From positions 1-64,000 of IMG/VR virus record IMGVR_UViG_3300037657_000053: a DNA stretch of 64,000 nt; one strand, given 5' to 3'. The stretch is from a virus. Under the pieces are notes generated by a model that did not search any database, had not been told where the DNA came from, and saw nothing but the letters and a program-made list of their open reading frames with translations. A program made the position numbers and the translations under genes. Shown piece by piece: positions 83 through 59,564 of this stretch (positions are counted from its first letter, which is position 1; each line of letters begins with the position of its first letter).

Positions 83-168
83 CCTCGAAAAAAGTTCTTG
101 ACCTTCCTGCCTCGATAGCGCATAACAGAATCATCAGGGCAACGGAGCCCGAAGGAAAGAGAGAGAAC
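83..168 (+). promoter_or_regulatory. Sigma70-type early promoter and leader, copy 1
   Basis: TTGACC (98-103), 17-nt spacer, CATAAC (121-126), A-tracts upstream; block duplicated at 1371-1457. Confidence 0.75.
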
Positions 169-1952: not shown

Positions 1953-1956
1953 CTGT

Positions 1957-18357: not shown

Positions 18358-18360
18358 ATC

Positions 18361-43405: not shown

Positions 43406-43534
43406 GAGTCGATCCTTTCGTGGTTGTCCCGATTATCGGACGGTTGATCAACTTCTCGAGTGGTGGAAACCCGGGTTTACACTTGAAATGGTTTGACGAT
43501 GTGACATGCCTCGCCCATGTGATATGATTCAAGC

Positions 43535-44251
43535 ATGAAACATTTCAAACGATTTTTCGTGTTCTATGCGTCGGCTCTCGTCGACTTGACGATCGCCTTT
43601 CCCATGGTCTTGCTCGTTCGAGCATTCTGGGGGCGTGATCTGAGATGGGCTCGGGGGGTTCTCTCTTGTGAGCTCCGTCCCGAGTCGTGGGCTCTCGGTG
43701 GGAAGATCGATCCTTCGACGGGGCTCTTGAAGAATCGGTTCCCCCTGTGGTGGCCGGCCGGATGGTATCTTTACAACCGACGGGCGGCCGTCGCCCGTGA
43801 GGAGAAGCCGAGATCGTGGGGCGGAACCTCGATCGGACATGGTCAGATCTTCGGGCCCGGGAACCGGGGCTCGATCGAAGAACCGAGCTCTGTTGAGGTT
43901 CACGAGGATCATCACACCGCACAAGCCGAAGCCGCTCAAATGGGAGCTTGCCTTCTCGCTCATCTCTTCTTCATCGTTGCGACGGCTTGGGGCCATTGGA
44001 TCGCCGGGCTCATCTTCCTCTTCGTGGTTTGGGGGCTTGGTGGCAACGTCTTGAACGCTTGCGGGGGGTGGTCGGTTGCTTGGCTCAATGGACACCCCGA
44101 CGGCTTCTATCGAGGGTCGGCTCATGAGATCGGAGCATGGGCGGTCGGTCGAATGTATGCTGAGAGCTTGAAGTCGAAGAATGATAAACAAGCTCGTCGA
44201 GTTCTTGCCATGAAGACTCTTATTCAACCGAAGAGCGGGGGCGGTCTATGA
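43535..44251 (+). CDS. Membrane protein with HExxH motif
   Basis: VHEDHH, hydrophobic helices, downstream Y....E..A. Confidence 0.65.
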   Translation: MKHFKRFFVFYASALVDLTIAFPMVLLVRAFWGRDLRWARGVLSCELRPESWALGGKIDPSTGLLKNRFPLWWPAGWYLYNRRAAVAREEKPRSWGGTSIGHGQIFGPGNRGSIEEPSSVEVHEDHHTAQAEAAQMGACLLAHLFFIVATAWGHWIAGLIFLFVVWGLGGNVLNACGGWSVAWLNGHPDGFYRGSAHEIGAWAVGRMYAESLKSKNDKQARRVLAMKTLIQPKSGGGL

Positions 44252-44547
44252 TGATCAAGCCCGGTTCAACTTCCGAAGACTTCGAGGAAGAGCTCGAATC
44301 TGAATTCGAGGCACCTCGAATTGGTTCGGCTTCTGAAGATCCCGAGCCCATCATCCTTTCTGATACCTCGAGGGTCGGGCGGGCTCACTATGAGGGAATG
44401 AGCGAGGTCGAAGCGGTGAAGACCTTCCACGAAGAGAGTCTTTGCGGCTCTTGTTTCATGTCGGCAATGTGCCGGGTTGCGGTCGGCGTCGATAGCTCGC
44501 TCACCGTAGTTTCACGGTGTCTGGCCTATCTACCGCCAGAGGGTTAG
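44248..44547 (+). CDS. Hypothetical Cys-cluster protein
   Basis: CGSC....C...C; coupled start. Confidence 0.6.
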   Translation: MMIKPGSTSEDFEEELESEFEAPRIGSASEDPEPIILSDTSRVGRAHYEGMSEVEAVKTFHEESLCGSCFMSAMCRVAVGVDSSLTVVSRCLAYLPPEG

Positions 44548-44549
44548 AC

Positions 44550-44925
44550 TCTAGAATCGGGCCGCCGGTCCGCTTCTTCTCGAAGGCGTCCCCCTTGCGT
44601 CTTCGGTGTGGAAGTGAAATTTCCGGCGGCCCGATTGGTCTCCCCCCTAACAACCCCCCTCTATTCTCTTTCTAAGTTATAAACAACAGATTCTTAGATC
44701 TAAGAATCTAAGAGAATAATCAAATGTATAACTAAGAGGGTGTGACTCACGGTTGTCCTCGCTCAAAGAACCCTTCGGGTTCTTTTCGCTGCGGAAACCG
44801 AGTCACACCCTACGCGCACGCGCGCGAGGCGCGGCGGGGTGCCTCGAGACGAGAGAACACCGGAAAGTTGGAAACCCGGGTTTCCAAGACGATTCGCCTT
44901 GTGAGTTCGTGTCCGATAATCAGGT
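44550..44925. other. Structured non-coding region, candidate replication origin/regulatory hub
   Basis: 14-bp inverted repeat 44555-44636, AT-rich tract with 22-bp palindrome 44688-44709, hairpin 44765-44786, one dispersed palindrome copy, one promoter motif. Confidence 0.55.
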
Positions 44926-46437
44926 ATGGTCAAGATGAAGCTACCTGACCCGCTCGTCGCCGTGATCGATTCACGAATATGGCTTCCGCCCGGGTTGCCC
45001 CGTCCGTTCGAGAACGCGGTGAAGAATCGGTTCACGCACAAGAACCCCGACTTCTTCCGAGCTCGGAATATGGGTTTCGCGACTTGGGGGATCGACTCGA
45101 AGATCTCGACGTGGGAGATGAGAACCGATCGGCTAGGCGAACGACTAACGATTCCGAGGGGTGGAACGAGAGCTCTTCGGGAATTGTGTGAGTCGTTTGG
45201 GATTAGATTGAAGTGGTTGGATCGGCGGACTATCGCCCCGACCGACTTTCCCTTCTTCAAGGTTCACCCCGATCGCCCGTATGAGCTTCGGGACTATCAA
45301 GCCGAGGGGGTGGCGGTCTCCCTCGAGAAGCAGCAAGGGATCGTGAGAAGTCCGACCGGCTCGGGAAAGACGACTTCGGCTCTCGCTCTCATCTTCGAGG
45401 CGCAAGAACGAGCTCTCGTGATCATGCGAGACCGAAACCTTCTCAAACAATGGCGAGCCGACGTGAAGAGCTCGCTCGGTCTCACGAACAAAGAGATCGG
45501 GCATATCATGAGCGGGCGTAAATACTTCCCCGGTCGGAAGATCGTTCTTGCGCTTCAACAGACCCTCTTCGCTCGGATCGATGAATGTCTCGAGATCTTT
45601 CGAGACGACCCCTTCGGCATCGTCGTGATCGACGAGGTTCAACTTCTCGCGGCGAAGACTTTCATCACGGTCGTTGACGCGATCCCGGCGAAGATGCGAA
45701 TCGGCTTCTCGGCCGATGAGCGGCGGAAGGATGGGAAGGAATTTCTGATCTATGACTACATGGGCGAGGTGATTCACGAGACCGAGCGGAAGAAGCTCGA
45801 ATCTCTTCAAGTGATCCATCCCGTGACGATTCGCGTCGTTGAGAGCGACTTTCGCGCCGATTGGTATCGCGATGCGGAAGCGAACGAGCGAGACTTCGGG
45901 AAGCTTCTCGAAGAAATGACCGACAATCACCAGAGGAACTTCTTGATTCTCGAGACTATTCGGGGAATGTTCCTCGCTGGTGAGGTTCCCGTTCTCGTCT
46001 TCACTTCTCGGCGGGAACATGCTCACGAGCTCGCTGTAGACTACCTCACGCCGAACGGGCTCGAGACAGGGATTCTCATCGGGGGAACCGGGAAGGACGC
46101 GGAACGCTTCGAGCTCGACAAGGCGGCTCTTCTCTCAGAGAAGCTTCACGTCGGAATCGGCACCTTCCAAGCGATTGGAGTGGGCCACAATATTCCGGTT
46201 CTGAGAGCCGGCCTTTGTTCGACGCCGGTCTCGAAGCATAACCCACAATTTTTCGGCCAAGTGAGGGGAAGGTTTTGCCGAACCTCGAAGGCTACCGGGA
46301 AAACAGAGGCTTTTTTGTATTATATCTGGGATCGCGAGATCTTTCCCGATCATCTCCGTTTTCTCGAACGGCACAATAGAGGGCGAGTGCAACTCTTTCG
46401 GGGCGGCGAGTGGATTTCGCTCTCTTCCGTCCGATAA
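44926..46437 (+). CDS. Superfamily 2 DExD/H helicase
   Basis: LRDYQ, PTGSGKT, DEVQ, SA, QVRGR. Confidence 0.88.
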   Translation: MVKMKLPDPLVAVIDSRIWLPPGLPRPFENAVKNRFTHKNPDFFRARNMGFATWGIDSKISTWEMRTDRLGERLTIPRGGTRALRELCESFGIRLKWLDRRTIAPTDFPFFKVHPDRPYELRDYQAEGVAVSLEKQQGIVRSPTGSGKTTSALALIFEAQERALVIMRDRNLLKQWRADVKSSLGLTNKEIGHIMSGRKYFPGRKIVLALQQTLFARIDECLEIFRDDPFGIVVIDEVQLLAAKTFITVVDAIPAKMRIGFSADERRKDGKEFLIYDYMGEVIHETERKKLESLQVIHPVTIRVVESDFRADWYRDAEANERDFGKLLEEMTDNHQRNFLILETIRGMFLAGEVPVLVFTSRREHAHELAVDYLTPNGLETGILIGGTGKDAERFELDKAALLSEKLHVGIGTFQAIGVGHNIPVLRAGLCSTPVSKHNPQFFGQVRGRFCRTSKATGKTEAFLYYIWDREIFPDHLRFLERHNRGRVQLFRGGEWISLSSVR

Positions 46438-46464
46438 TCATGACAAGAGTCGAAACGAGGCAAC

Positions 46465-46851
46465 GTGCGACAACGTAAGGTGACAACAGGAACTCCTCTT
46501 CTTGGCTCTCAGACGGCCGGGGCGGAGCCTCGAGTTACGACAACATCTTCGGTCATGACCGGCCGTGAGATCGATTCTAGGCCCCTTCCTGACTTCGAGG
46601 TTCGGGAAGGCGATCGGCTCACCGTGCTATACAACGGAGCAAAGTTACAAGTCGCCCCGTTCTCGTTGGTTGAGCTTGATGCGGGGATCTATTCCCGAAG
46701 TCTTCAACCGGGCGACGACGCGGCCGAACAATGGGATCGCGTTCATGGCTTCCTCGAAAGGAAGTGTCTCGAGAGAGCTCGTGCGAAGCTTCAGGCTTAC
46801 GCGGAAGAGCTCGCCGAAGCAAAGGCTATTGCTGCCGGTAAGCACCGATGA
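46465..46851 (+). CDS. Hypothetical protein
   Basis: GAGG RBS; follows a promoter motif. Confidence 0.65.
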   Translation: MRQRKVTTGTPLLGSQTAGAEPRVTTTSSVMTGREIDSRPLPDFEVREGDRLTVLYNGAKLQVAPFSLVELDAGIYSRSLQPGDDAAEQWDRVHGFLERKCLERARAKLQAYAEELAEAKAIAAGKHR

Positions 46852-47435
46852 TCTCGAGGAAGAAAATCAAACCGGGAACCGCGTCGGTCGTTGCGGTAGT
46901 CTTGGAAACCCGGGTTTCCAAACCATTACAACTCGGTTTTCAACTCGACGATCTCAGAGAGAACAGGAAGAAGGCGGCGTTTGTTGATGCCTTCTTGAAC
47001 CACGGGCAGGGGAAGAGACCGACGAAGGGTAAGGTCGGGAGGGCGAAGGCGACCCCAATCGAGCTCGCCGTCGCCGAAGCGAAGAGGCGATCTCGTGAGG
47101 GCGATTGGTCGGGAGCGAAGGGGAAGGTATTTGTTGGTTTGTATGCTCTTTGCCATGAGATAGTTTATGGCGACGTTCCTCTTGAGCTCACCGAGAATCA
47201 AGAGCTCACGATCGGGGCCCGTATGGTGAACCGAGTTCTTCACGACTTCTTCGATGATGATCCCGACGCTCTTGTCGAGTTCATAAAATGGTCGTGGGAA
47301 GCCGAGAAGAGGAAAGAGTCGTGGGCTCTTCGCAACGGGATTAGTCGTCAACGAATGAGAGTGAGACTTCAATTCTCTGCTCGCTTGGTTCAAGATTATC
47401 GGACCGAAAAACAGAGAAGTGGACGTCGAAGGTGA
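46848..47435 (+). CDS. Hypothetical protein, possible initiator/helicase loader
   Basis: Directly upstream of the DnaB-like gene; contains a palindrome copy. Confidence 0.6.
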   Translation: MISRKKIKPGTASVVAVVLETRVSKPLQLGFQLDDLRENRKKAAFVDAFLNHGQGKRPTKGKVGRAKATPIELAVAEAKRRSREGDWSGAKGKVFVGLYALCHEIVYGDVPLELTENQELTIGARMVNRVLHDFFDDDPDALVEFIKWSWEAEKRKESWALRNGISRQRMRVRLQFSARLVQDYRTEKQRSGRRR

Positions 47436-47474
47436 ACTCAATCGTAAGAGTAAAGAGCGGAAAAGGTTGGTCTC

Positions 47475-48890
47475 ATGTCCGATAAAGATATCAAGGCTGA
47501 GTTCATATATGATAGTGCAAATGAGATAATTGTGATCCAAGCCGCGAAGGGCGACGCGAAGAAGCGGAAAGAGCTCGTTCATCGAATCGCCGCCGACGAG
47601 TTTTTTGTTCCGAACCACGGGCCGATCTGGCGAGCTCTTCGGGCGATGAGCGATCGAAACCTTGAGCTCACTCCCGACGTCGCGCGTCAACTTATTCTCA
47701 AAGAAGGTGGAACCGAAGAAGTCGTAAGCTACTTCGACGCGATCGCGGCTCGAGAGGTTCCGAACCTCGATTTTCATCTCTCGACTCTCCAGTGGGATGC
47801 CACGAGAGCTCGGGTGCTCAAGTCGGGTGCTCCTAAGCTTCTCGCGTCGCTTCAAGACCCTCACGCTTCGCAGGGCGATGTGATGTGTTTCGCTCGTTCT
47901 CTCGCTCGTTCTCTCGAGGGCGGCGACCGTCGATTTATGCACCGGCCTCCTGAGCTTTATCGCAGCTATCGAGCCGAGCGATCGGCCCGTAGAGTGAAGC
48001 GGAACGTCTTCCCTCTTGGGCATGAAGATTTCGATCGGAATCTCTCAGAGGGGTTCATGCCCGGGAGAACGACCGTCTCAGCGGGGCTTTCGGGGGCTGG
48101 GAAGTCGACGGTTTGGATCGCCTTTGCGGTCATGCTCGCGAAGCTCGGGCGGCGCGTTCTGTGGTGCTGTTGGGAGATGGACGCTCACTCTGTTCTCGAC
48201 GTTGCGACTTCGCACATGACCGGAATTGATCTCACTGCCAATATTCAGGGTAATACGACCGATGAGGAAGAAACGAGACTTGACAAGGCGACGGCTTGGA
48301 TTCTTCGTCGAATCGTTTTCATGGCGAATCCCTTCTATGCAATCGAAGAGAGCGCGAAACCGTCAAATGCTCGGAACCTTGACGTTCTTGAGGGATATAT
48401 CACCGAGTCGGGTTGTGATGTGGCGATCTATGATCTTTGGGAAAGGATGCTCGCCTATTCCAAGCCTGACGACGTGACGAAGGCTCTCTATAGAATGCAA
48501 GCGATGCACCGGGAATATTCGGTTCACGGTGTGATCATTCAACAATTGCATTTGAAGGACGTCGAGAACCGAGCCGACAAGCGACCGACGAGAGCGGCGA
48601 TCAAGGGTGTCGGTTCATATGTCGAGGTTGCGGATCTGATCATCGGCATTCATAGAGAAGGTCAATTCAAGAACGTTCAAGATAACACGATCGAAACCAT
48701 TTGTTTGAAGCAACGTAAGGGGCGCCCAAATTGGGCGGTCAGGTGGGATTGGGATGGGCCGACTTGTTTCGTTGGTAACCCAAGAGAAGTGTCTTATGAT
48801 CCAGGTCTCGAAAATTCGGCCGAGATCGGAGATATCGGGAGCATTCAAACGAAGAAGAGTCGTCAACAAGTCGGGAGAAGAGATCAATGA
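47475..48890 (+). CDS. dnaB: Replicative DnaB-like helicase
   Basis: FF.P.H..IW N-terminus, GLSGAGKS, WEM, QL, ADLII.IHR, KQR.G. Confidence 0.85.
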   Translation: MSDKDIKAEFIYDSANEIIVIQAAKGDAKKRKELVHRIAADEFFVPNHGPIWRALRAMSDRNLELTPDVARQLILKEGGTEEVVSYFDAIAAREVPNLDFHLSTLQWDATRARVLKSGAPKLLASLQDPHASQGDVMCFARSLARSLEGGDRRFMHRPPELYRSYRAERSARRVKRNVFPLGHEDFDRNLSEGFMPGRTTVSAGLSGAGKSTVWIAFAVMLAKLGRRVLWCCWEMDAHSVLDVATSHMTGIDLTANIQGNTTDEEETRLDKATAWILRRIVFMANPFYAIEESAKPSNARNLDVLEGYITESGCDVAIYDLWERMLAYSKPDDVTKALYRMQAMHREYSVHGVIIQQLHLKDVENRADKRPTRAAIKGVGSYVEVADLIIGIHREGQFKNVQDNTIETICLKQRKGRPNWAVRWDWDGPTCFVGNPREVSYDPGLENSAEIGDIGSIQTKKSRQQVGRRDQ

Positions 48891-49051
48891 GCGATTTTCA
48901 AAAGAGGATCGTGAGGAATAGTTACAATCGGCTTGAATTGTTATTGAAAGCGGTTCGAGACAAGAATGAAAGAGCCCGCCTTCTCGAACAACTCAAAGAG
49001 GAACGAGCGATTGTCGATGCGAGCTTGAAAGTCGATGTTCCCTCAAATTGA
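48887..49051 (+). CDS. 54-aa hypothetical protein
   Basis: ATGA coupled to dnaB; fills the gap to the primase. Confidence 0.5.
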   Translation: MSDFQKRIVRNSYNRLELLLKAVRDKNERARLLEQLKEERAIVDASLKVDVPSN

Positions 49052-50018
49052 TATCGAGACTTTCCTTCGGAACCTCGGGCTCGTTGCCCGATACGTTCCT
49101 TCGGCGCGAAAGTGGATCGCGGCTTGTCCGAATCCGGCTCATCGGGGCGACACCCCGAAAGACAAATGGGAGCAATGGATATTTCGGCAAGGTGTGATCG
49201 CTTCGTGGTCGATCAACGATCGGCCGGGCGAGCGGGGGCACGGCTCGCACCATTGCCATAGCTGCAAGTTCGGCGGTGGCCCGTGGGAATTGGCGGCGAT
49301 GGTTTGGGGTTGCACTCTTGAGGAAGCCGGGAAGAAGATCGGCGAGTTCTTTCGTCGCCCGATGTCTCTCGAGGTTCCTCGGGTCACGATCCGAACCTCT
49401 CAAGAGAAGAAGGTCTTCGAGCTTCCTTCGGGGGTTGTGATCCCCGGGCCCGGGGGTCGGTGGTTCGGGCCTGCTCTTCGTTATCTCGAGAGCCGGGGGA
49501 TTACTCGTGAACAAGCCGACAGATGGGGGCTTGGCTACGCGGTAAAGGGGCGACTCGTGAATCGAGTCATTTTCCCCGTTTGGACGGAAGGCGAACTCAG
49601 AACCTACTCGGCTCGGGCGATCGCCCCTGGGATGAAGCGGTATGATGCCGGGCTCGAGAAGCTCGGGGCGCAACCGAAGCGGGCTCTCTTCGGTGAGCAT
49701 CTTTTCGACCGGTCGATCGGGATCGTCACGGTTGCGGAAGGTTGCCCCTCGACTCTCGCTCTCGAACGGGCCGGGGCTCCGAATCCGGCCGGTATGCTCG
49801 GGAGCTACCTCACCCCCGACCGAGCTCGAATGTTGTCGTCCTTCCCGGCCGTTCTCATCGCGACCGATCCCGACGCGGCCGGCGAGAAGGTCGCTCAATG
49901 GATAGACGTTCTTTCGCGGCGCGCGGAGGTCCGTCGGATTTCGCTCGAGCTCGCCCCCGACGATACGCCCCCGGCAGAGCTCTATCGTAAAGTGCAATCC
50001 GTTCTTGACACTTTGTAA
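49035..50018 (+). CDS. DnaG-like primase
   Basis: CP...H..CHSC zinc finger, YL.SRG, RVIFP, Toprim EG and DPD.AG. Confidence 0.85.
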   Translation: MFPQIDIETFLRNLGLVARYVPSARKWIAACPNPAHRGDTPKDKWEQWIFRQGVIASWSINDRPGERGHGSHHCHSCKFGGGPWELAAMVWGCTLEEAGKKIGEFFRRPMSLEVPRVTIRTSQEKKVFELPSGVVIPGPGGRWFGPALRYLESRGITREQADRWGLGYAVKGRLVNRVIFPVWTEGELRTYSARAIAPGMKRYDAGLEKLGAQPKRALFGEHLFDRSIGIVTVAEGCPSTLALERAGAPNPAGMLGSYLTPDRARMLSSFPAVLIATDPDAAGEKVAQWIDVLSRRAEVRRISLELAPDDTPPAELYRKVQSVLDTL

Positions 50019-50039
50019 GTTACGAGAGATTCTTTTTTC

Positions 50040-50480
50040 ATGAAAACTTTAGAAGAGCGGTTTTGGTCATATGTTGCGAAGGGGAACGAAGAAGAATGTT
50101 GGGAGTGGCGAGGGGCTTTGAAAAAAAACGGATATGGTGTGTTGACTGTAAATCATCGTCAAGTGTTGGTTCATCGTCTTTCTTATGAGTTACATAACGG
50201 CGATATTGGCGATTTGTGCGTATGTCATTCTTGCGACAATCCGAAATGTGTGAATCCGAATCATCTCTTTCTCGGCACTCATCAAGAGAATATGGACGAT
50301 AAGGTTGAAAAGGGTAGGGTTTCAAGGGGCGAAGATTTGCCTCAGACGAAGCTAACCGTTGAAGATGTTCTTTTTATTCGCGAATCGGCAGAATCACTTC
50401 GGGCTCTTTCAAAGCGATTTGGAGTTTCGTATCAGGCGATCTCGCTCATACGGAATCGAAAGACGTGGAATCATGTATGA
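50040..50480 (+). CDS. Free-standing HNH homing endonuclease
   Basis: CWEW, HRLSY, VCHSCDNPKCVNPNHL; C-terminal HTH; AT-richer than flanks. Confidence 0.9.
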   Translation: MKTLEERFWSYVAKGNEEECWEWRGALKKNGYGVLTVNHRQVLVHRLSYELHNGDIGDLCVCHSCDNPKCVNPNHLFLGTHQENMDDKVEKGRVSRGEDLPQTKLTVEDVLFIRESAESLRALSKRFGVSYQAISLIRNRKTWNHV

Positions 50481-50502
50481 TTTCCGCCCCATGCAACTTT
50501 TT

Positions 50503-50555
50503 TCAAAAAGCTCTTGACTCTTTGTGAGGGCACCCCGTATAACTGAATCATCGGG
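50503..50555 (+). promoter_or_regulatory. Sigma70-type early promoter, third member of the 83/1371 family
   Basis: AAAAAGCTC-TTGACT, 18-nt spacer, TATAAC-TGAATCATC. Confidence 0.7.
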
Positions 50556-50610
50556 TCGGCGATCGGCTCGAAGGGTCAAACCCTCAAGGCTCGGAACGAA
50601 AGGTGAAACC

Positions 50611-52632
50611 ATGTCAACTGTCCCCGCTACTGCTGAAGATCTTCTCGCCGGTCTCAATGCCGAGCAGAGAGAAGTCGTCGAGTTTTTCACAGGGGCCGCT
50701 CTCGTCGTCGCGGTTGCGGGTTCGGGCAAGACCCGCGCTCTCGTTCATCGGATCGCTTATCTGATTAGAGAGCGCAATGTGAATCCCGGCGAGATTCTTG
50801 CGGTCACCTTCTCGAAGAAGGCGGCCGAAGAGATGAACGAGCGGCTCCGGTCGCTCGGGGTCTACGATTGCCGAGTTGGAACGTGGCATTCGTTGTGCTG
50901 GGAGATCATTCGGAAAGAATGCCCGGAGTATCAAACTGAATGGGAGCTCGACACGAAGGATCGATTCCGCGTCGTCGTCAAGACCGCTATCGGTTGGCAG
51001 GGGATGAAGTGGCAGGGTGCCGATCTGCAAACGATTCTTTCCTTCATCGGGATTTGTAAGAGTCGGCTCGCCGAACCGGGAACCCCCGAAGCCTTCGCGA
51101 TCGCTCAAGAGCTCTTCGACTCGAACCCGTGCGGGAAGAACGATCCGCACCTTCTGAGCGAAGCCTATTTCAGATCTCAAGAGGGGGCCGAGCAACGTCG
51201 GATCTTGACCTTCGACGATATGCTCGTGATCGCCTATCGCCTTCTGTGCGACGAAGATGTGAGGCTTCGTTGGTCCGGTCGCTTCAATTTCATGCTTCAA
51301 GACGAGGCGCAAGACGAGAACATGGCTCAGGTCGCGATTGCTGAGAAGCTCGCTCGCGATCACGGGAACTATATGTGCGTTGGCGATCCGGCTCAGTCGA
51401 TCTATGGGTTCCGTGGTTCCGTTCCCTCGAAGCTTCTCGCCTTCGAGATCGAATGGAACGCTCGCGTGATCCGAATGAGTAAAAATTACCGTTCGGTGGA
51501 CGCGATTCTCGGCGCGGCGAATGGGGTGATCCGGGCGATGGACCCGACGACTCATCTCGGGGTCATGATGGAGGGCTGTAGGGGCGACACGACTGAGATC
51601 AACGTGATCGAGCTCGAAGATATGGACGAAGAGGGGCGGGCGATTGTTGACGAAATGAAGGCTCGTCATGAGTCGGGCGCCGAGTGGTGCGATATGGCCG
51701 TTCTCTATCGCACGAACGCACAATCTCGTGGTCCGGAAGAATTTCTCATTGCTAACCGCGTTCCCTATGTGGTGATCGGCGGGACGAATTTCTACAACCG
51801 GAAAGAGGTCAAAGACCTTCTTTCTTATCTTCGCGTCGCGGCCGACCGTGCGAATGAAGCCGACTTCAAGCGGTGCATCAATACTCCCTTCAGATATCTC
51901 GGGAAAGCCACCGTCGATCATTTCGTTGGGGATCGTCGTCCCCGCGAGAATTGGACGGCTTCGGTTCGCCGCGTCGCCGATTCGGGTCGTGGGATTCAGT
52001 ACCGACAGAAGACGGCCGCCTATGAGTGGGCCGGTCTCATTGACTCGATCGCTCAGTCGATGATGATCCGTGAAAAGGCGCGTCTCGACTTCGAGACCCG
52101 TCTCATTCTCGAAGACTCCGAACCCGATGCGGTTCGCCCACGCATCCGAGATCACCTTCCCGCCGCGATTCTTGAGAGGGTGATCAAAGAGACTGACTTC
52201 GTGAAGTATCTCACTCGAGACGAGGGCGCCGAGACGGTCGAGAATAACCGCGTGAGTAACGTTCGCGAGCTCGTGCGGGCCGCCGAACGGTTCACGACGG
52301 TACATGAGCTTCTCGACTATATCGACGAGACCGTTCGGGCGGCAGAAGAGGCGTCGAAGGATCACGACGCGAACCGCGTAACGCTCTGCTCGCTTCATAG
52401 GTCGAAGGGTCTCGAGTGGAAGTCGGTTTGGATCGTCGGTGCGAACGAGAAGATTCTGCCTCACGGTCGCGCGACTGATATCGAGGAAGAGCGCCGCCTT
52501 TTTTATGTTGGCGTGACTCGCGCTATGAATGAACTTACCATCTCTCGGGTAAGAATTGCGGCATTCGGTGCGCGAGTGATCGGGCTCGAACCGTCTCGCT
52601 TCCTTGCCGAAGCCGGTCTCGAGGTGCTTTAG
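50611..52632 (+). CDS. UvrD/PcrA-like SF1 helicase
   Basis: LN.EQ, AGSGKT, DEAQD, GD..QSIYGFRG, NYRS, LYRTNAQS, H.SKGLE, EERRLFYV..TRA. Confidence 0.95.
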   Translation: MSTVPATAEDLLAGLNAEQREVVEFFTGAALVVAVAGSGKTRALVHRIAYLIRERNVNPGEILAVTFSKKAAEEMNERLRSLGVYDCRVGTWHSLCWEIIRKECPEYQTEWELDTKDRFRVVVKTAIGWQGMKWQGADLQTILSFIGICKSRLAEPGTPEAFAIAQELFDSNPCGKNDPHLLSEAYFRSQEGAEQRRILTFDDMLVIAYRLLCDEDVRLRWSGRFNFMLQDEAQDENMAQVAIAEKLARDHGNYMCVGDPAQSIYGFRGSVPSKLLAFEIEWNARVIRMSKNYRSVDAILGAANGVIRAMDPTTHLGVMMEGCRGDTTEINVIELEDMDEEGRAIVDEMKARHESGAEWCDMAVLYRTNAQSRGPEEFLIANRVPYVVIGGTNFYNRKEVKDLLSYLRVAADRANEADFKRCINTPFRYLGKATVDHFVGDRRPRENWTASVRRVADSGRGIQYRQKTAAYEWAGLIDSIAQSMMIREKARLDFETRLILEDSEPDAVRPRIRDHLPAAILERVIKETDFVKYLTRDEGAETVENNRVSNVRELVRAAERFTTVHELLDYIDETVRAAEEASKDHDANRVTLCSLHRSKGLEWKSVWIVGANEKILPHGRATDIEEERRLFYVGVTRAMNELTISRVRIAAFGARVIGLEPSRFLAEAGLEVL

Positions 52633-53228
52633 TGGGTCGCTTTGAATCCGACCTTCTCGGGCTCCGTTCTGGTGAGCTCTCTTTCGAGATCTTCACCAGG
52701 CGGAACCGGGAACGGTTCGCGAAGTGGGCATCCTATTTCATTGACCGTTACCGTCCACATGGGCTCGATATCGACGATCTCGTTCAAGACGGGTTGATCG
52801 AGGCATGGCGAGCCGTCGACGGTTGGGAAGAAAGACTCGGAGTTTCGATTCAACGCCGAGTCGAATACAAGGTCGGTGAGCGTATGGATCGAGAGGTGAA
52901 GCGAGCTCTCGGGTGGCCGCGACGCGACCGAGACAAGCCGGCTCAACAAGTTTTCGCTCCTATGGCGATCGAATGTGCTGTTTCGTCAGCGATAGGAGTC
53001 GAGAAGAGGATCGAGCTCGCCGCCGTCGTTTCAACGCTTTCGTGTCCTCTTGAACGCGACGTAACGATCGGGATTGGGATGGGGGCTTCGATTCGGGCGG
53101 TTGCTGCGTATCTCTATTCTGACCCCAGAAAACGACTGTGGTACGAATTCGATTCGGGAGATCATGCCGTTCGATGCGTTCGGGCGGCCGTCAAAAAGGT
53201 AACGAAAACGTTGGAGAAAGCACCATAG
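52632..53228 (+). CDS. Sigma70-family-like factor
   Basis: Region-2-like DIDDLVQDGLIEAWRAV; coupled to the UvrD gene. Confidence 0.65.
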   Translation: MGRFESDLLGLRSGELSFEIFTRRNRERFAKWASYFIDRYRPHGLDIDDLVQDGLIEAWRAVDGWEERLGVSIQRRVEYKVGERMDREVKRALGWPRRDRDKPAQQVFAPMAIECAVSSAIGVEKRIELAAVVSTLSCPLERDVTIGIGMGASIRAVAAYLYSDPRKRLWYEFDSGDHAVRCVRAAVKKVTKTLEKAP

Positions 53229-53359
53229 GCCGATCGATCTGGTTTGGAAACCCGGGTTTCCAAGAAGAAAAAAGTTGACGGTCTCATAAAAAAGTTGAAA
53301 GCTAGTCCGATAATCATAAGGAAGCCGAAAGGGCGAAAGCCCGGGGAGAGAGAAAAAAA

Positions 53360-54700
53360 ATGCCTCTGAAGAATGAAGACGTCGAAATCAACGCCGATGC
53401 GATCATGTCGGTCGCCGGAACCCTCGAGATCGAGCTTTCGAGCAACGATCCCGACACCATCGTCGACGAGATGAGGGCGGCCTTTGCCATTCGTCTCGAG
53501 GGGATTCCAGAGGATCAATGGGTCAAGTGCGAAGTGTGCGGCGAGGTGACGGACAACGATCCTCGGATCACCTTCTGTCCCTTCTGCGGCGATGAGGGCG
53601 AAGAGGAGCTCGAGGTGGAGGGCGAGGAAGACGAGGAAGATGAGGGAGACGAAGTGATCGACGGTGCCGATTACGATGATTCCCCCGACCCCGAGGAAGC
53701 TCCGACCGTGGATCTCGACGCCGATGATCCGATCCAGGTCGAGATTCCCGAGGCGCCCACCGAGAAGGCGTCTTCCGAGCCCGAGAAGGCCACGAGTGGT
53801 GGCAAGGGTGGCAAGGGTGGCAAGGGTGGCAAGGGTGGCAAGGGTGGCAAGGCCACGGCGAAGGGCAAGAACGAACTCCCTGCCGACAAGCCTCCGACGA
53901 AGCAGGGTGCTCCTGCGAAGAAGCGGGGTGCTCCGAAGAAGGACGCTGAGAACGAGACGGCGATCATCCCTGACGAGAAGCGGGCCGAAATGCTCGCCGA
54001 GCTCACGACCGAGAAAAAGAAGATCGAGGAGGGGCAAAAGTCGATGCTCACCTCGGGCTATGATCTCGGCGAGAGCTTGCGACGGGTATATACGGGAGAA
54101 CTCTGGAGAGCGGAGGGCCATAAGGACTGGCGGGTTTTCTGCGCGTCGATCGGGATCTCCCATACGCTCGCCTACAACCTCATGAAGATTGTCGATCAAT
54201 TCTCGAGAGACGACTTCATGAAGGTCGGACAGAAGAAGCTTTCGCTCATCGCTCGAGCCGAGCCCGAGGATCAGCCGGCTCTGCTCGAAGAGGCGAAGAA
54301 GGGGAAGTCTGCTCGACAGATCGACGCCGAGGTGAAGGCGGGCAAGGGCAAGGGCAAGGGCAAGGGCAAGGGCAAGGGCAAGGGTGAGGCGCCGAATCCG
54401 AAGGGAGTCGAGGGCGGTAGCGTCGGACGCCCGAAGATCGAGGATCAGACGATCACTCTTCTCGGCAAGGTCGGAGGCAAGGCGAAGACCTATGCTTTCC
54501 GGTCGCGGAAGGATTCTTCGGAAGTGGCCGAGTGGGCCCCCGACACCTACGTCGAGATCCCGATTTCCGAGACGGTCGTTCAATATATCGTGTTGAAGAC
54601 CGACAAGACCGGAAAGCCGGTCGGGCTAACGACCGCATTCCGCAAGGTCGAGCCGGGCGAGAAGTCGACCGAGAACCCCGCCGAAGATTCCGTCGAGTAG
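53360..54700 (+). CDS. Zinc-ribbon, acidic, Gly-Lys-repeat protein with HTH-like segment
   Basis: CEVC..CPFC; (GGK)6; IGISHTLAYNLMKI; (GK)7. Confidence 0.7.
   Translation: MPLKNEDVEINADAIMSVAGTLEIELSSNDPDTIVDEMRAAFAIRLEGIPEDQWVKCEVCGEVTDNDPRITFCPFCGDEGEEELEVEGEEDEEDEGDEVIDGADYDDSPDPEEAPTVDLDADDPIQVEIPEAPTEKASSEPEKATSGGKGGKGGKGGKGGKGGKATAKGKNELPADKPPTKQGAPAKKRGAPKKDAENETAIIPDEKRAEMLAELTTEKKKIEEGQKSMLTSGYDLGESLRRVYTGELWRAEGHKDWRVFCASIGISHTLAYNLMKIVDQFSRDDFMKVGQKKLSLIARAEPEDQPALLEEAKKGKSARQIDAEVKAGKGKGKGKGKGKGKGEAPNPKGVEGGSVGRPKIEDQTITLLGKVGGKAKTYAFRSRKDSSEVAEWAPDTYVEIPISETVVQYIVLKTDKTGKPVGLTTAFRKVEPGEKSTENPAEDSVE
53798..53851 (+). repeat. Tandem repeat (GGTGGCAAG)x6
   Basis: Read directly; encodes (GGK)6. 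Confidence 0.9.
54341..54382 (+). repeat. Tandem repeat (GGCAAG)x7
   Basis: Read directly; encodes (GK)7. Confidence 0.9.
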
Positions 54701-54777
54701 TCTCTTCTCTTCTCTTCACTTCTCTTCTGAAATCTTCACACTTTGACCGATAATCAAAGGGAACGAAAGGTTTTCCT

Positions 54778-57465
54778 TTGACGACTAAATTCGTTTCCGC
54801 TTGGACGGAAAAAAACAAGACATATCTCGTTGAAAGAATCAATGAAGACACTGTGAAGATTCGAGCGGTTCCCGCTCGCTTCTCGTTCTTCGTGACAGGT
54901 CTCGACGAATATGATCGGATGGCTCTCGGGCGTGATCCGGGGGTGATCGGCGTGATCGATCAAGGTCGATACACTCGGGTCAATTGTCGAAATCATTGGA
55001 CGAGGAAGGAACTTGTAGAAGTTCTCGAAGAAGCGATTGTTCGGAACGAGTCGGGGGCGAAGATTCTCGAGGCCGACGTGTCACCTCTTCGACGGCTCTT
55101 GAGCGATGTTCCGAATCTCGAGATCGATCCCGAACCGAATGTTGTTTTCCTCGATCTTGAGACTGACTCGCGGGCGACATTTTCCGAAGCGACACGGGGC
55201 GAAGCTCGTCTTCTCTCGTTCGCGGTTTGTGACGCGGCCGGGCGGGCTTCCTCGGGCCTTCTCGCTGCCGATACTGACGAAGCCGAGCGTTCCCTTTGGG
55301 GCGAGTTTTTCGATGTTCTGAGGGGCTATGACTGCGTTCTCGCGTGGTATGGATCGGGCTTCGATTTTCTCGTGATACAGAATCGATCCGTTCGGCTTGG
55401 AGTGACTCTCAACGGCCGAGAGATTCAATGGCACAGATGGACGTGGTTGGATCATCTTGAGCTCTTCATGAAATATAACAAGCTCGGAACGGGAGAGGAA
55501 AAGACTTCATACGCTCTCGATCACGTCGCGCAATATCTACTTGGTGAAGGGAAGGGGAAGCTCGCCTTCGATAGCTCGAAGACATGGGAAGCTTGGGCGG
55601 CGGGCGGCGAGGAACGCGAGAGACTTCTTCGATACAATGAGCAGGATGCCGCTCTTCTTCCGAGAATCGAAGAGAAGACCGGCTTCCTCGCTCTTCACTT
55701 GGCGGTCTGTCAGATTTGCCGAGTTTTTCCAGATACCGAATCGCTCAATGCGACTATTCAGGGCGACGGATTTCTTTTACGACTAGGGGAGGAACACGGC
55801 ATTCGTTGGCCGACTAAGAAGCCGGTCGACGATGAAGCGGTTTATGAGAAATTCAAGGGCGCTTATGTAATGGAACCCGGGCGTTATGGTGCGATTCCGA
55901 CCGTTCATGTTGCTGATTTCGCCGGTCTATATCCATCGATCATGCGAACGTGGAATATGAGTCTTGAGACGAAGGTGAATCTTCGGGGTGTTTATGACGA
56001 CATTCCCGAAGATGTAGAACTCGAACCCCGAGTCAAATCGGGTTTGTGCCAACTCCCGAACCGGGCGACGTGGTTCAAGACGACCGAAGAGGGGATGTTC
56101 AAGATTGCTCTCGATCGATTGGTTTACAAGAGGGCCGAGTATACGGCTCTTATGAAGAAGGAAACCCCCGGCTCGAAACAACACGAGAAGTTCAAGCGTC
56201 TCTCGCAAGCTTTCAAGACGGTCGCGAATAGTTTCTATGGGATCGTCGGCTCGCCGTTCTCGAGGTTCTTCGACGTCGAGATCGCGGAAGGTGTCACTCA
56301 AACCGGGAAGTGGCTTCTTCAAAACGTGATTCGCGAGTCACAAGCGGTCGGCTTCGATCCATTCTATGGTGACACCGATTCGGTGTTCGTTGCCGGCTGC
56401 ACGCCCGAAGAGTTTCGAGCTCTCGTTGATGCTCTCAACGAGTCATGGTCGAAGCGGCTCGAACCGTGGGGGATCGGTAGTCACTTCATCGATCTCGACT
56501 TCGAGAAGACTTTCTCTCGAATTATCATGATCACGGCGAAGCGATATGTCGGGAAGTTCCTCATGTACAAGGGCAAGGCGGCCCCCGACGACGCGCCCCC
56601 CGAGGTGAAGGGACTGGAATTCAACCGGGGCGATTCGATCCGTCTTGCCCGGGATTTCCAACGTCAAGTGATTGATCGGTTACTTGAAAGGGACTTGCCT
56701 TCGGCGGCCGATATGCGAGATCTCGTTCTCGATTGGAAGAACCGAGTCTATCGGGGTGAGCTCTCGCTTGAAGATGTTGTGATGAGTCAATCTCTCTCGA
56801 AGTCTCTTAGAGAATACTCTGTGCAGAGCGCGCCGCCTCATGTGCGGGTTGCTCGTCTCATGGTCGAGAGAGGGGAACAGATCGGCGAAGGGGCTCGAGT
56901 TCGATTTCTCGTGATTCCCGGCGATGGCTCAAAGCTCAATCCAATTCCGGCTTCTGATCCAGGCGCTCTCGAGAGGATCGATCGGATCTATTATTGGGGG
57001 AGGAAGGTCTATCCGCCCGTTCAACGTGTTCTGGAGAAGGTCTATCCGAAAGAGCAGTGGGCCGAGACGACCAAAGAGAAAAGAAGCCGCGAATTTGAAG
57101 CCAAGGGTCAAGGCACTCTCTTTGATACGATAGGGAGCCATTCCACCGTGACACCACGAAGGAGGAAGAAGAGGCGAGTCGATGGGCTCGAGATCACGAT
57201 TGTTGAAGGATCGCCTTTTACAGATGGGGGCGCCGAGAAGGTTCGTCGAGAGCGTCTTCTCAAGGCGATTCACACGGCGATCGATGCGAACCCCGGTGAG
57301 GTTCCTGTGACCGTCGTTGTCGCGTTCAAGAGCTATACCGAAGGCAAGGAAGAGACGGTGAAGGTTTACATCGACACGAAGACGACGATCGCCGATACAC
57401 CCGCGAGTCGGGCCGCTCTCATGAGAATTCTCTCGAAGCCCGATCGGTTCGAGTTTTTGTCATAG
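54778..57465 (+). CDS. Family B DNA polymerase
   Basis: Exonuclease DLETD; DFAGLYPSI, K...NSFYG, YGDTDS, KRY, KGLE. Confidence 0.95.
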   Translation: MTTKFVSAWTEKNKTYLVERINEDTVKIRAVPARFSFFVTGLDEYDRMALGRDPGVIGVIDQGRYTRVNCRNHWTRKELVEVLEEAIVRNESGAKILEADVSPLRRLLSDVPNLEIDPEPNVVFLDLETDSRATFSEATRGEARLLSFAVCDAAGRASSGLLAADTDEAERSLWGEFFDVLRGYDCVLAWYGSGFDFLVIQNRSVRLGVTLNGREIQWHRWTWLDHLELFMKYNKLGTGEEKTSYALDHVAQYLLGEGKGKLAFDSSKTWEAWAAGGEERERLLRYNEQDAALLPRIEEKTGFLALHLAVCQICRVFPDTESLNATIQGDGFLLRLGEEHGIRWPTKKPVDDEAVYEKFKGAYVMEPGRYGAIPTVHVADFAGLYPSIMRTWNMSLETKVNLRGVYDDIPEDVELEPRVKSGLCQLPNRATWFKTTEEGMFKIALDRLVYKRAEYTALMKKETPGSKQHEKFKRLSQAFKTVANSFYGIVGSPFSRFFDVEIAEGVTQTGKWLLQNVIRESQAVGFDPFYGDTDSVFVAGCTPEEFRALVDALNESWSKRLEPWGIGSHFIDLDFEKTFSRIIMITAKRYVGKFLMYKGKAAPDDAPPEVKGLEFNRGDSIRLARDFQRQVIDRLLERDLPSAADMRDLVLDWKNRVYRGELSLEDVVMSQSLSKSLREYSVQSAPPHVRVARLMVERGEQIGEGARVRFLVIPGDGSKLNPIPASDPGALERIDRIYYWGRKVYPPVQRVLEKVYPKEQWAETTKEKRSREFEAKGQGTLFDTIGSHSTVTPRRRKKRRVDGLEITIVEGSPFTDGGAEKVRRERLLKAIHTAIDANPGEVPVTVVVAFKSYTEGKEETVKVYIDTKTTIADTPASRAALMRILSKPDRFEFLS

Positions 57466-57510
57466 AAATGTGTTCGTCCGTCCGATAATCGAGACAAGGG
57501 AGAAAAGTTC

Positions 57511-58107
57511 ATGGCAACGAGACGCAAAATCGGTTCCGGTGAAGAGAAGGACGTGCTCGAGACGAAGCCGTTTCAGGGTTCAAGCGAGCAGGACAATAAC
57601 TCGGTTTCCTACGCTGAACCGGGGATCGCTTGGGGCAATGTGATTCGAGACGTTCTCAGGATCGATAATCCGGCTTGGCTCGCGAAGCGATTGCGAGGCG
57701 AGCTTACGTTGAGCGACGAGGGGCGTTCTTCCTACGGCTCCCTTCTCGCTGCTCTCGACAGGTCGGCGAGGAATTACGACGACGCTTACATGCTCTATCG
57801 CGGGGCGAAGGTCGAGGAATCTCGATTCGCTCTCGAGCTCCGAGAGCGATTCGAGGTCATGAAGGAACACGCATCGTCTGAGTTGATGGACGAATACAAG
57901 GAGAAGAAGCGGCGGTCTCCGACGACCGAGGACATAGAAGATCGAATGATGTCGAGTTGGCCCGATGAATACAGGCACCTCAGAACAAAGGAAGCCGAAC
58001 TCCATGCGGCGGTGAGAAGTTTGGAAACGCTTGCGAAGGCGTGGTCGTCCAGGTGCGCCGATCTTCGAGCAATGGCCGATATGTTCACGGCCAGAAAGAA
58101 CGGGTGA
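57511..58107 (+). CDS. Helical protein, possible UvsY-like recombination mediator
   Basis: Coiled coil; position near RecA and SSB-like genes (inference). Confidence 0.5.
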   Translation: MATRRKIGSGEEKDVLETKPFQGSSEQDNNSVSYAEPGIAWGNVIRDVLRIDNPAWLAKRLRGELTLSDEGRSSYGSLLAALDRSARNYDDAYMLYRGAKVEESRFALELRERFEVMKEHASSELMDEYKEKKRRSPTTEDIEDRMMSSWPDEYRHLRTKEAELHAAVRSLETLAKAWSSRCADLRAMADMFTARKNG

Positions 58108-58111
58108 AGAC

Positions 58112-59461
58112 ATGGGTCTCGGATTGGCGAGCTTTCTCAACCACAACGAAGGGTCTGCTCGAAAATTTCTCAAGGACTGGAAGAAGAAGGGATCGATCGT
58201 GGTGTGGCTCTATACCCGAGCAGATATCGCTTGGGCTTCGTGGAATCATTCCTTTGTAGCATATGGAACCTATAAGAACGACAAGGACGAAGAGGTCGAG
58301 TGTCTCAAGTATCCCCGCTTTGTCTCGCCCGATCCCGAGGTGGTCCATCAGAATCAATACTTCCGCAACGAGGGTGACGATTCGATGCAAATACCACCGT
58401 CGCTCGATCCATTCCTTCGCCTTCGGGAATGGCTCCGACTCGATTGCGATTTGCCTCTCGATACCGTCATCTTCCGTTGGGAGAACCCCCACCCGAAGCC
58501 CGGGAAGAGCCCGATCATCGAATGGCAACGTGGGCACCTTGCCCGGTTGGTCGATCGTGGGCGGTACAACTTCGGTGCGTCGCTCGACACGAAACTTGAG
58601 TATTTCTTCGTCGTTGTCGACAACGAGAAACCACAAGATGGGGCCCAGATCGTTCGGGGAACCAAGCTTCTCGGAGACGTGATGAAGAAGGAGATCGGAC
58701 ATCAGATCGAGAGCGATGGTGAGAAGGGCAATCCGCTGATCCATCCGTATGCGTTCAAGTGGGTCTATGACGATTCGGCCGGTTCTCCGATGGATTCATA
58801 CCGCGCGTTTCGCTATAACGCGGCGGAACTCACACCGCAGATCCGCGAAGCGATCACGAGCTCCGAGTATCCCGATCCGTCGCAAGATTGCAAACCTCGG
58901 GCGGGCGACAAGGCGAAGATCCGGGCTGCCATGGAAGCTGCCGCACAAGTCGATCTCCCATGGGATCGACTCTTCGTTCCCGAGTGGGAAGACGAAGAAC
59001 CCGGCGATTTCAACTATGGTGCGAATGCGGGCTCTCAGGTGGTCTCTCAGGGCTCGGGAACCTCGGGGGGTGCCACGGGGCGGCCGGCTTCTCAGACGGG
59101 CTCTCAGGGGCCGTCTCGCGAACGGGAGAGCCATGCGGTGAGCGGCGCGCAATCTGCCCGTCGGAAGAAGGTCAACAAGCCCGAGCCCCCGCCTCCGAAT
59201 GTCGAGATGATCAAGTGCGATGACTGCGACACGATGCTTCGACCGGATCAAGCGAAGTGTCCGAATTGTGGAGCGGAATACGAGGTCGATTCTGAACCCA
59301 CCGTTTCCTCCAATTCGGTGCAACAGGAAACCCGGGTTTCCAACGGAACGACCGGAACGACCGGAACGACCGACGTCACATGCTGGTCTTGTGGTGGTCC
59401 CGTCGTGAAGGGAAGTTGCACGAATTGCGGGCTCGAAGCAGGAGACGAAATTCCGTTCTAG
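58112..59461 (+). CDS. Putative ssDNA-binding/recombination protein with C-terminal zinc ribbons
   Basis: SSB-like acidic end DEIPF; four CxxC motifs. Confidence 0.6.
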   Translation: MGLGLASFLNHNEGSARKFLKDWKKKGSIVVWLYTRADIAWASWNHSFVAYGTYKNDKDEEVECLKYPRFVSPDPEVVHQNQYFRNEGDDSMQIPPSLDPFLRLREWLRLDCDLPLDTVIFRWENPHPKPGKSPIIEWQRGHLARLVDRGRYNFGASLDTKLEYFFVVVDNEKPQDGAQIVRGTKLLGDVMKKEIGHQIESDGEKGNPLIHPYAFKWVYDDSAGSPMDSYRAFRYNAAELTPQIREAITSSEYPDPSQDCKPRAGDKAKIRAAMEAAAQVDLPWDRLFVPEWEDEEPGDFNYGANAGSQVVSQGSGTSGGATGRPASQTGSQGPSRERESHAVSGAQSARRKKVNKPEPPPPNVEMIKCDDCDTMLRPDQAKCPNCGAEYEVDSEPTVSSNSVQQETRVSNGTTGTTGTTDVTCWSCGGPVVKGSCTNCGLEAGDEIPF

Positions 59462-59564
59462 ATGCCGTTACGTCTTACTCTCCTACTTTTCTTTCTTTGA
59501 TTCTTCCTTGATTCTTCCTCACAAAACACGTTCCTCTCGTCCGATAATCAATCGAGAGGTGACA

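Follow-up and report, generated by a model that had tools for sequence, protein, structure and literature searches.

A sigma-70-family protein and a candidate single-element promoter of replication genes in an uncultured tailed phage

Phage sigma cascades are textbook knowledge. In T4, the sigma-2-only protein gp55 needs gp33 and the sliding clamp and drives late genes, from promoters of the form TATAAATA. Here we examine a putative cascade of this known kind, one that overturns nothing, in an uncultured tailed phage represented by a virus record of IMG/VR (IMGVR_UViG_3300037657_000053; 89,023 bases, 55.5% G+C). Its two elements are an 11-base motif, GTCCGATAATC, and a sigma-like protein (P0001) encoded by the open reading frame (ORF) at 52632. 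The window that was analysed is the stretch of DNA formed by bases 1-64000 of this record; coordinates above 64,000 are those of the whole genome. The one sequencing run found to contain this stretch is a groundwater DNA metagenome, perhaps its source; no RNA run was found with it. We consider it probable, with moderate confidence, that host RNA polymerase makes the phage sigma and that this sigma then drives a regulon of replication genes.

The described systems that bear most closely on this locus are those of phage phiEco32 and of bacterial sigma-28 (FliA). In phiEco32, as its promoters are described in PMC8948821, early genes are transcribed by host sigma-70 and the phage sigma gp36 recognises one element alone, tAATGTAtA, from which transcription starts 6-8 bp downstream. 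Its relative 7-11 has a diverged sigma, gp47, and a different, bipartite promoter, GTAAtg-N16-aCTA, in the promoter descriptions of PMC8948821 and PMC12276001. For sigma-28 (FliA), the account of the open complex in PMC12784957 gives a long -10 consensus, GCCGATAA, in which -7 is not conserved, and has A-11 flipped out and arginine R80 in contact with G-12.

Seven exact copies of GTCCGATAATC are found in the window, where 0.06 are expected, and none of 100 shuffles reached seven (Table 1). The original prediction had also counted seven copies of a phage-specific promoter motif in this region; the number stands, but the copy that it had placed before the family-B DNA polymerase (PolB) gene is the one-mismatch form GACCGATAATC, and the seventh exact copy is one that it had not listed, at 47394 on the minus strand. 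At up to two mismatches 26 sites are found in the window against 28.5 expected, which is chance level, and thus only the exact or near-exact form is special. The whole genome holds 13 exact copies and two GACCGATAATC (GACC) variants (at 54745 and 78969); these 15 sites, 13 on the plus strand and two on the minus strand, span 43.4-85.7 kb, with none in the structural half of the genome. All except one aim at a start codon 4-44 nt downstream, mostly with a GGAG-like ribosome site between, and 12 of the 15 have, 0-45 nt downstream, the earliest start codon open to an ORF of 56 or more amino acids (background 12.7%, binomial tail 5.8e-9). The ATG comes 5 nt past the motif at genome position 75675 and 4 nt past it at the SF2 helicase gene; these gaps leave no room for a ribosome site, which fits leaderless mRNAs starting there, and the spacing at the helicase suggests that its mRNA is leaderless or nearly so.

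Within the motif, a core GATAAT is flanked by GTCC and C; G at -12 is present at all 15 sites, and T-7 and C-6 are invariant. An extended -10 (TGn) is absent from the motif sites. The claim that the sites have no shared -35 element held up: the best k-mer between -34 and -6, TTTC, occurs at 11 of 21 sites, within the null range (95% null maximum 12), and a promoter scan finds a weak -35-like hexamer at only two motif sites. Upstream of the motif we found neither the sigma-28 -35 box TAAA(GTTT), including TAAA at N15, nor the AAC-type -35 that is a feature of promoters of extracytoplasmic function (ECF) sigmas; what can be seen is a weak A-rich signal 12-15 nt 5' of the motif. Searches of open-access papers and bioRxiv for the exact motif strings gave unrelated primer matches only. 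These observations support, indirectly, the view that the motif behaves as a gene-oriented, single-element promoter of the -10 type.

ORF 52632 matches the Pfam model Sigma70_r2 (PF04542) at 30.3 bits against a cutoff of 24, bearing out its earlier description as sigma region-2-like, and the same model matches 69 of the 70 aligned members of its family. A profile search of 1.84 billion representatives gathered 321 proteins of this family, each of about 200 amino acids, and in the PDB the profile matches sigma factors only; PHROGs holds no family match for the sigma, and the Pfam region-4 model does not match ORF 52632. The AlphaFold model (predicted local distance difference test score, pLDDT, 92) has helical domains at residues 1-92 and 110-196 joined by a 17-residue low-confidence linker, with no sigma-3 domain seen between sigma-2 and sigma-4. 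Its top structural matches are all sigma factors. Several of the alignments, to sigma-E, AlgU and SigB at full length (residues 1-198 of the phage protein) and to full-length FliA, span both domains at Z 8-9, a score that alone is modest for helical proteins and that here agrees with the sequence matches. With a broad profile of 70 sequences the best match among solved structures is Pseudomonas aeruginosa FliA (E 3.7e-8); with a narrower profile of 10 sequences sigma-H comes first, over both domains, and FliA fourth, behind sigma-H and ECF sigmas. In the alignment to sigma-H region 4, the phage protein has an 8-residue insertion in the turn of the helix-turn-helix. The NCBIfam model TIGR02479 (FliA_WhiG) is absent among the P0001 matches at E <=0.01, and TIGR02937 (ECF) reaches 18.5 bits against a cutoff of 42.9. 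By sequence and predicted fold, then, ORF 52632 is a real member of the sigma-70 family, unplaced within it, and of neither the FliA nor the ECF family by the curated models.

The sigma gene does not follow a copy of the motif. It stands instead behind UvrD and a bipartite promoter, TTGACT-N18-TATAAC; both this promoter and the coupling of the two genes had been predicted, and both are confirmed, the coupling by the UvrD stop TAG, which overlaps the GTG start of the sigma as TAGTG, and the promoter by its conservation in a relative (L001, below), including 20 bases, CGTATAACTGAATCATCGGG. It belongs to a second class of about 13 sites in the genome, each with an A-tract, TTGAC(C/T/A), 17-18 bp and (C/T)ATAAC. 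A pattern search picked out twelve (98, 1386, 1957, 50514, 76568, 82574, 84584, 85171, 86057, 86842, 87582 and 88162), and one more, before the gene at 81738, was seen by eye; the loosest form of the pattern also matched 29700(-), 33438(-) and 46215(+), which were dropped from the class for want of TTGAC and of the flanks that the others share. Cassettes of about 75 bp, nearly identical to one another, account for ten of the copies; each has a 5' hairpin and a ribosome site and precedes a small ORF, and they lie at 82-89 kb and at 0-1.4 kb, in what looks like an early host-takeover region.

We propose the following sequence of events. Upon infection, the host polymerase carrying its primary sigma would read the TTGAC(C/T)-N17/18-(C/T)ATAAC promoters, one of which would make UvrD and, by translational coupling, the 198-amino-acid sigma. 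The latter would displace the host sigma on the core polymerase and direct it to about 14 motif sites. There GTCCGATAATC would serve as the single-element promoter of middle genes (DNA replication, recombination and nucleotide metabolism), with GATAAT as the -10 element (G-12, A-11, T-7), GTCC as a 5' extension and C as a 3' flank, and with transcription starting some 4-7 nt past the motif. Three parts of this cascade, which the original prediction had put forward, have indirect support: a motif that behaves as a gene-oriented promoter of the -10 type, a genuine sigma, and a conserved bipartite promoter before the sigma gene. Our results establish the statistics, orientation, position and conservation of the motif, the predicted fold of the sigma and the presence of the promoter before its gene. 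That the motif is a promoter, that transcription starts where we place it and, above all, that the phage sigma is the reader are what we infer. We take the phage sigma as the reader for four reasons. First, no other complete sigma is encoded in the genome, and this one would be expressed from the other promoter class. Second, the motif departs from primary-sigma rules (neither a TGn nor a -35, G-12 at every one of the 15 sites, extra invariant bases). Third, the structural half has no other repeated non-host motif for it to read. Fourth, the motif resembles the sigma-28 long -10, whose G-12 is contacted by R80, and in the profile alignment the phage sigma has K at that position.

In function, the closest analogue appears to be phiEco32 gp36, closer than T4 gp55; the spacing of the motif to start codons is also compatible with an element of that kind. 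Both phages have a sigma-70-family protein of their own, early genes read by host sigma-70 and a single conserved -10-type element without a -35, all of this predicted from sequence for the phage described here and, for phiEco32, as PMC8948821 summarises that system; and in both clades the motif differs between related phages with diverged sigmas, to judge from the promoter comparisons in PMC8948821 and PMC12276001. The differences are that gp36 is reported, in the description given in PMC8948821, to be without region-4 homology, whereas the sigma studied here has a sigma-4-like domain; that a partner like gp79 was not identified here; and that the motif would serve replication genes only, with zero copies in the structural half. 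The sequence relation to gp36 is confined to region 2.2 (9m7y_F, the sigma chain of the gp36/gp79 complex; profile positions 42-68, E 0.019). FliA is another point of comparison: TCCGATAA of the motif agrees with seven of the eight bases of GCCGATAA, G-12 and A-11 included, as that consensus is given in PMC12784957, and the phage sigma has a basic residue at the R80 position. Unlike FliA, it is without a sigma-3 domain, has 198 amino acids, is not matched by the FliA/WhiG model and goes with no TAAA -35 box, and its presumed site has invariant T-7 and C-6, set against the published outline of sigma-28 promoters.

The original comparison with T4 gp55 holds for a -10-only promoter and a phage sigma-like protein working on host core polymerase, and is looser than that with gp36 or sigma-28: the sigma here has two domains and a putative replication-gene regulon, and no sequence relation to gp55 was found. 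The group 4 (ECF) sigmas share the sigma-2/sigma-4 layout, and they are among the structural matches (sigma-E, AlgU, SigW, CnrH, SigK), with a weak match to TIGR02937; that match falls far under its cutoff, however, and there is no AAC-type -35, no neighbouring anti-sigma and no bipartite promoter at the motif sites. On sequence grounds the phage sigma is probably not a member of the gp36 family, and it belongs neither to FliA nor to the ECF sigmas by the curated models.

Conservation of the motif could be followed in two relatives. L001 is a metagenome contig of 51% G+C; its sigma shares 62% identity with ORF 52632, and the contig is syntenic with the phage from MazG to RecA. Its 20.6 kb carry five exact copies of the motif and one GACC copy, before the orthologues of the MazG, helicase, 46465, 53360, PolB and 57511 genes; no copy stands before its RecA gene. 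When five orthologous pairs are anchored on the motif (a sixth pair was dropped), the 40 nt upstream are identical at 78 of 200 positions and the motif itself at 53 of 55, and in this comparison the motif is an island of conservation. In L002, a shorter contig with a sigma 42%, a UvrD 64% and a 53360 orthologue 36% identical to those of the phage, GGCTGATAATC is found at the syntenic place after the sigma gene, so that the stable core is GATAATC. L003, L004, L007 and L008 were rejected as relatives, being merely generic region-2 matches, and so were about 12 repeats of TCCGACATTC in L007, an unrelated viral contig, as kin of the motif: they lie in both orientations within 300 bp (18231-18523) and are iteron-like, not gene-start signals. 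A search of IMG/VR with the single sigma protein found no relatives, nor did the cultured-phage database hold any relative of the sigma; in a genome collection there was one weak match, in a metagenome-assembled genome of Planctomycetia (L009), too distant for use.

More distant relatives came from a scan of IMG/VR with a palindrome of the phage, GGAAACCCGGGTTTCC (discussed below). Four large syntenic virus records (G001, G002, G003 and G005; 63-69% G+C) have replication proteins 25-45% identical to those of the phage, and each holds a member of the sigma family (E 3e-13 to 4e-27); a fifth palindrome-sharing record, 30% complete, gave no sigma match, and CCGATAATC is absent from all five. G001 has a motif of its own, CGGCATGATG, in 17 copies, mostly followed by N6 and ATG, before genes of replication and nucleotide metabolism. 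Before PolB we found GGCATGATGG in G001, GGTATGCTGG in G002 and GTCATCATGG in G003, each 4-5 nt 5' of a GTG. The pattern that is invariant across lineages is nATnnT, which supports GATAAT as the -10 register. Position 80 of the sigma, which is K in P0001 and aligns with FliA R80 in the profile alignment, is K, H or R in the GATAAT lineages (G at -12) and T, N, S or M where -12 is C or T; the G001 element set against the GATAAT lineage in this proposed co-variation is CGGCATGATGG. The co-variation fits the sigma-28 precedent, and we read it as a hint.

Two repeat arrays were seen in these records. In G001 (L076), 11 direct repeats of about 35 bp alternate with unique spacers of about 37 bp at 4279-5055, an arrangement like that of a CRISPR, directly 5' of its sigma gene. 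In G002, arrays with a period of about 37 bp (TCGTCCACTC ... CTCTTCGTTC) stand at both ends of the record.

Several points weigh against the proposed cascade. The four distant relatives hold the sigma gene but not the phage's motif, and by k-mer counts no clearly repeated motif exists in G002, G003 or G005, so that G001 alone of the four has one. The co-variation of position 80 with -12 is a single change between two clades, and P0001, as read from alignments, has R where FliA has the tyrosine that stacks on A-11. The affinity to FliA is not robust, moving from first to fourth place between the two profiles, and NCBIfam puts the sigma in no subfamily. A sigma-4-like domain is present, which elsewhere goes with a -35, and none is shared at the motif sites. 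All of the roughly 13 bipartite promoters close the -10 with C (position -7), an unusual base for a primary sigma, and thus it is not certain which promoter class the host reads. Many characterised phage sigmas drive late genes. Finally, a second sigma-related gene in the genome, at 81738-82313, is a complication.

In one alternative, host polymerase would read the motif with a host sigma, either the primary sigma acting independently of a -35, perhaps after a phage factor such as the 81738-82313 protein has blocked -35 recognition, or the host's sigma-28. This would leave other promoters, such as late ones, to the phage sigma. In Thermus phage P23-45 and with T4 AsiA/MotA, the host holoenzyme is indeed switched to -35-independent promoters, and the region 4.2 look-alike encoded here (Pfam Sigma70_r4, 3.7e-12) could be such a factor. 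GATAAT agrees with TATAAT at five of six positions, including A-11 and T-7, the motif also resembles the sigma-28 -10 consensus, and gp47 of 7-11 is an example of a phage sigma acting as a late factor, in the published outline of that phage. Against this, the motif sites have no extended -10 and have G at -12 in every case, their invariant GTCC and C exceed the known needs of a primary sigma, and the TAAA box expected of sigma-28 at N15 is absent; nor does the structural half offer the phage sigma any other repeated non-host motif, its signals being limited to the palindrome and to the sigma-70-like promoters at 1957 and 12918. We regard this alternative as unlikely.

Somewhat less likely in our view is an exchange of roles, with the 11-base sites as early promoters read by the host and an ECF-like two-domain phage sigma reading the bipartite class, including the promoter of its own operon (autoregulation) and the one at 1957 that heads the structural genes. 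ECF sigmas often autoregulate, and the C at -7 in about 13 of 13 bipartite promoters, atypical for a primary sigma, would be accounted for. An architecture of sigma-2 plus sigma-4 usually goes with bipartite promoters, according to the overview of phage sigmas in PMC8948821, and a bipartite promoter does head the structural module, just past a strong terminator. However, TTGACC with a 17-bp spacer and an A-tract resembling an UP element is the textbook layout of a primary-sigma promoter, and ten near-identical copies of it stand before small ORFs at the genome end that resemble early host-takeover genes. The 8-residue insertion in the sigma-4 helix-turn-helix also speaks against such a role, as do the distant relatives, which keep the sigma and, in G001, a single-element motif, and among which no repeated bipartite cassette was seen. 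The terminator just mentioned, at window 1915-1955, is strong, canonical and intrinsic (GGGGGCCC-TTCG-GGGCCCCC plus a T-run) and lies directly 5' of the 1957 promoter, TTGACA-N17-TATAAC.

That the motif is no promoter at all and instead the site of a DNA-binding regulator or an RNA element of the 5' untranslated region (a translational operator or processing site) is very improbable: its position 4-44 nt 5' of start codons would let it lie in read-through transcripts, as 14 nt past the PolB stop, and the local RNA at 59539 folds unusually well (z -3.55), but the four sites tested share no common fold (z -1.06, -0.76, -3.55, +1.36), Rfam has 0 matches within the window, the 11-mer is asymmetric with a canonical A-11/T-7 core and strictly co-oriented with genes, and at the two genes without ribosome-site room between motif and ATG a 5' end is needed there.

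Should the pairing of phage sigma and motif be true, it would be a compact one, a 198-amino-acid sigma and an 11-bp element without a -35, from an uncultured groundwater phage clade and from a sigma family of about 320 cluster representatives with no PHROG entry. Members of the clade in which sigma residues and the -10 bases differ in parallel (GATAAT against CATGAT) would form a natural series for testing rules of -12 recognition, and such sigma/promoter pairs are of the kind used as orthogonal expression parts. For annotation of the clade, the early cassette promoters, the middle motif class and the palindrome provide a transcription map.

Table 1. Candidate promoter motifs, associated genes and palindrome sites in the window
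Feature	Position	Strand	Context
Motif GTCCGATAATC	43431..43441	-	ATG of MazG-like pyrophosphatase gene (43405 down to 42860) 25 nt downstream; motif also before the L001 orthologue
Motif GTCCGATAATC	44911..44921	+	ATG of SF2 helicase (44926-46437) 4 nt downstream; same spacing in L001 (2897 to 2912)
Motif GTCCGATAATC	46429..46439	+	GTG 46465, 25 nt downstream
Motif GTCCGATAATC	47394..47404	-	Exact copy, antisense within a conserved plus-strand gene; codons Q-D-Y-R-T
Motif GTCCGATAATC	53305..53315	+	ATG 53360, 44 nt downstream, past a small GNRA-type hairpin (53331-53342); syntenic GACCGATAATC in L001, GGCTGATAATC in L002
Variant GACCGATAATC	54745..54755	+	TTG start of family-B DNA polymerase (54778-57465) 22 nt downstream; exact motif before L001 PolB
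Motif GTCCGATAATC	57480..57490	+	ATG 57511, 20 nt downstream, past Shine-Dalgarno-like GGGAG; 14 nt after PolB stop
Motif GTCCGATAATC	59539..59549	+	ATG 59565 of RecA/UvsX-like recombinase, 15 nt downstream
Sigma-70-style promoter TTGACT-N18-TATAAC	50514..50543	+	5' A-tract, 3' TGAATCATCGGG; predicted to serve UvrD and sigma gene; kept in L001 at 7861
UvrD-type helicase	50611..52632	+	True ATG 50611; stop overlaps sigma start
Phage sigma factor, 198 amino acids	52632..53228	+	Sigma-2 domain, basic linker, sigma-4-like domain
Host-style cassette promoter TTGACC-N17-CATAAC	98..126	+	One of about 13 in the genome; more in the window at 1386-1414 and 1957-1985
Palindrome sites	43-58, 7162, 8746, 14535, 19131, 24496, 28134, 33366, 36549, 43465, 44870, 46904, 53246, 59326, 61827		

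Two of the motif sites call for comment. No further plus-strand motif occurs between 46429 and 53305, and the unit that would begin at 46429 probably continues through the 46995-47435 gene, DnaB (47475-48890), primase (49035-50018) and an HNH endonuclease (50040-50480). The antisense copy at 47394 probably reflects chance in a coding sequence, favoured by conserved codons: the gene that hosts it is kept in L001 (59% identity over 125 amino acids), which has GATTATCGAGT at that place. It may alternatively act as an antisense promoter. Close to the MazG site and diverging from it, at window 43501-43528, is a sigma-70-like extended -10 promoter, GTGACA-N16-TATGAT with TG, directly 5' of an ATG at 43535.

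A third repeated signal is a 16-bp palindrome, G(G/T)AAACCCGGGTTT(C/A)C, with 16 window sites at up to two mismatches against 0.03 expected, and 24 sites genome-wide at up to three. Most of its sites are intergenic, and those in the structural half are often found only 10-20 nt 5' of start codons. G001, G002 and G003 have about 16-19 sites each, and symmetric variants are found in L001 (GGAAAACCGGTTTTCC), L002 (GTCCACCCGGGTGGAC) and G005 (GGAATCCCGGGATTCC); a scan of IMG/VR with the L001-type palindrome gave single chance-level matches only. As a -35 of the motif the palindrome was ruled out, its spacing varying from 28 to 59 nt, and it was likewise rejected as an intrinsic terminator, there being no T-run and an RNA hairpin no better than in shuffles (z +0.39, +0.33). 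It probably binds a conserved phage protein that acts as a dimer.

The second sigma-related gene (genome 81738-82313; L006:5738-6313) encodes a protein of 191 amino acids with a zinc knuckle, a near-canonical sigma-70 region 4.2 helix-turn-helix (the Sigma70_r4 match given above) and a C-terminal zinc ribbon, and is adjoined downstream by the gene of a ribbon-helix-helix protein (82310-82504). It may act as a decoy for -35 boxes, or as their repressor. An unlikely proposal, which goes beyond the simple cascade, is a three-part switch. The two-domain sigma would read the 11-bp, sigma-28-like long -10 alone, with its altered sigma-4-like domain only docking on polymerase; the 81738-82313 protein, on TTGACC -35 boxes or on the polymerase flap, would shut the roughly 13 host-type promoters; and a third regulator, at the 16-bp palindrome (about 16-24 copies per genome, G000-G003), would gate the structural genes. 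A switch of this kind is not described as such.

Nearly all genes of the genome are on the plus strand. The structural genes lie at 2-43 kb (portal, Mu-F-like protein, protease, capsid, T4-gp19-like tail tube, tape measure and baseplate proteins), and by this gene content the phage is contractile-tailed. The part from 43 to 82 kb is related to replication and carries the MazG-like pyrophosphatase, SF2 helicase, DnaB, primase, HNH endonuclease, UvrD and the sigma-like ORF, together with family-B polymerase, RecA/UvsX, SbcCD, ThyX, a PAPS-reductase-like protein, a pyrimidine-dimer glycosylase and dCTP deaminase. Small ORFs, mostly of unknown function, fill 82-89 kb and 0-2 kb. Against the cultured-phage database, PolB gives distant matches only (<30% identity).

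The HNH endonuclease gene at 50040-50480, between primase and UvrD, is absent at the same place in the syntenic L001 and is therefore likely to be a mobile insertion. The sole tRNA gene of the genome is a tRNA-Gln (anticodon TTG) at genome 71904-71974 (L005:9904-9974). Tandem units resembling GAGCCCCT lie at genome 75490-75600 (L005), after a palindrome at 75472. The ends of the record (window 1-45 and genome 88945-89023) are similar, not identical, each with about 14 C, a short spacer, a G run, a palindrome and an A-tract, and a third similar sequence is found at 76510; the ends may represent a repeated sequence and not the clean overlap of a circle.

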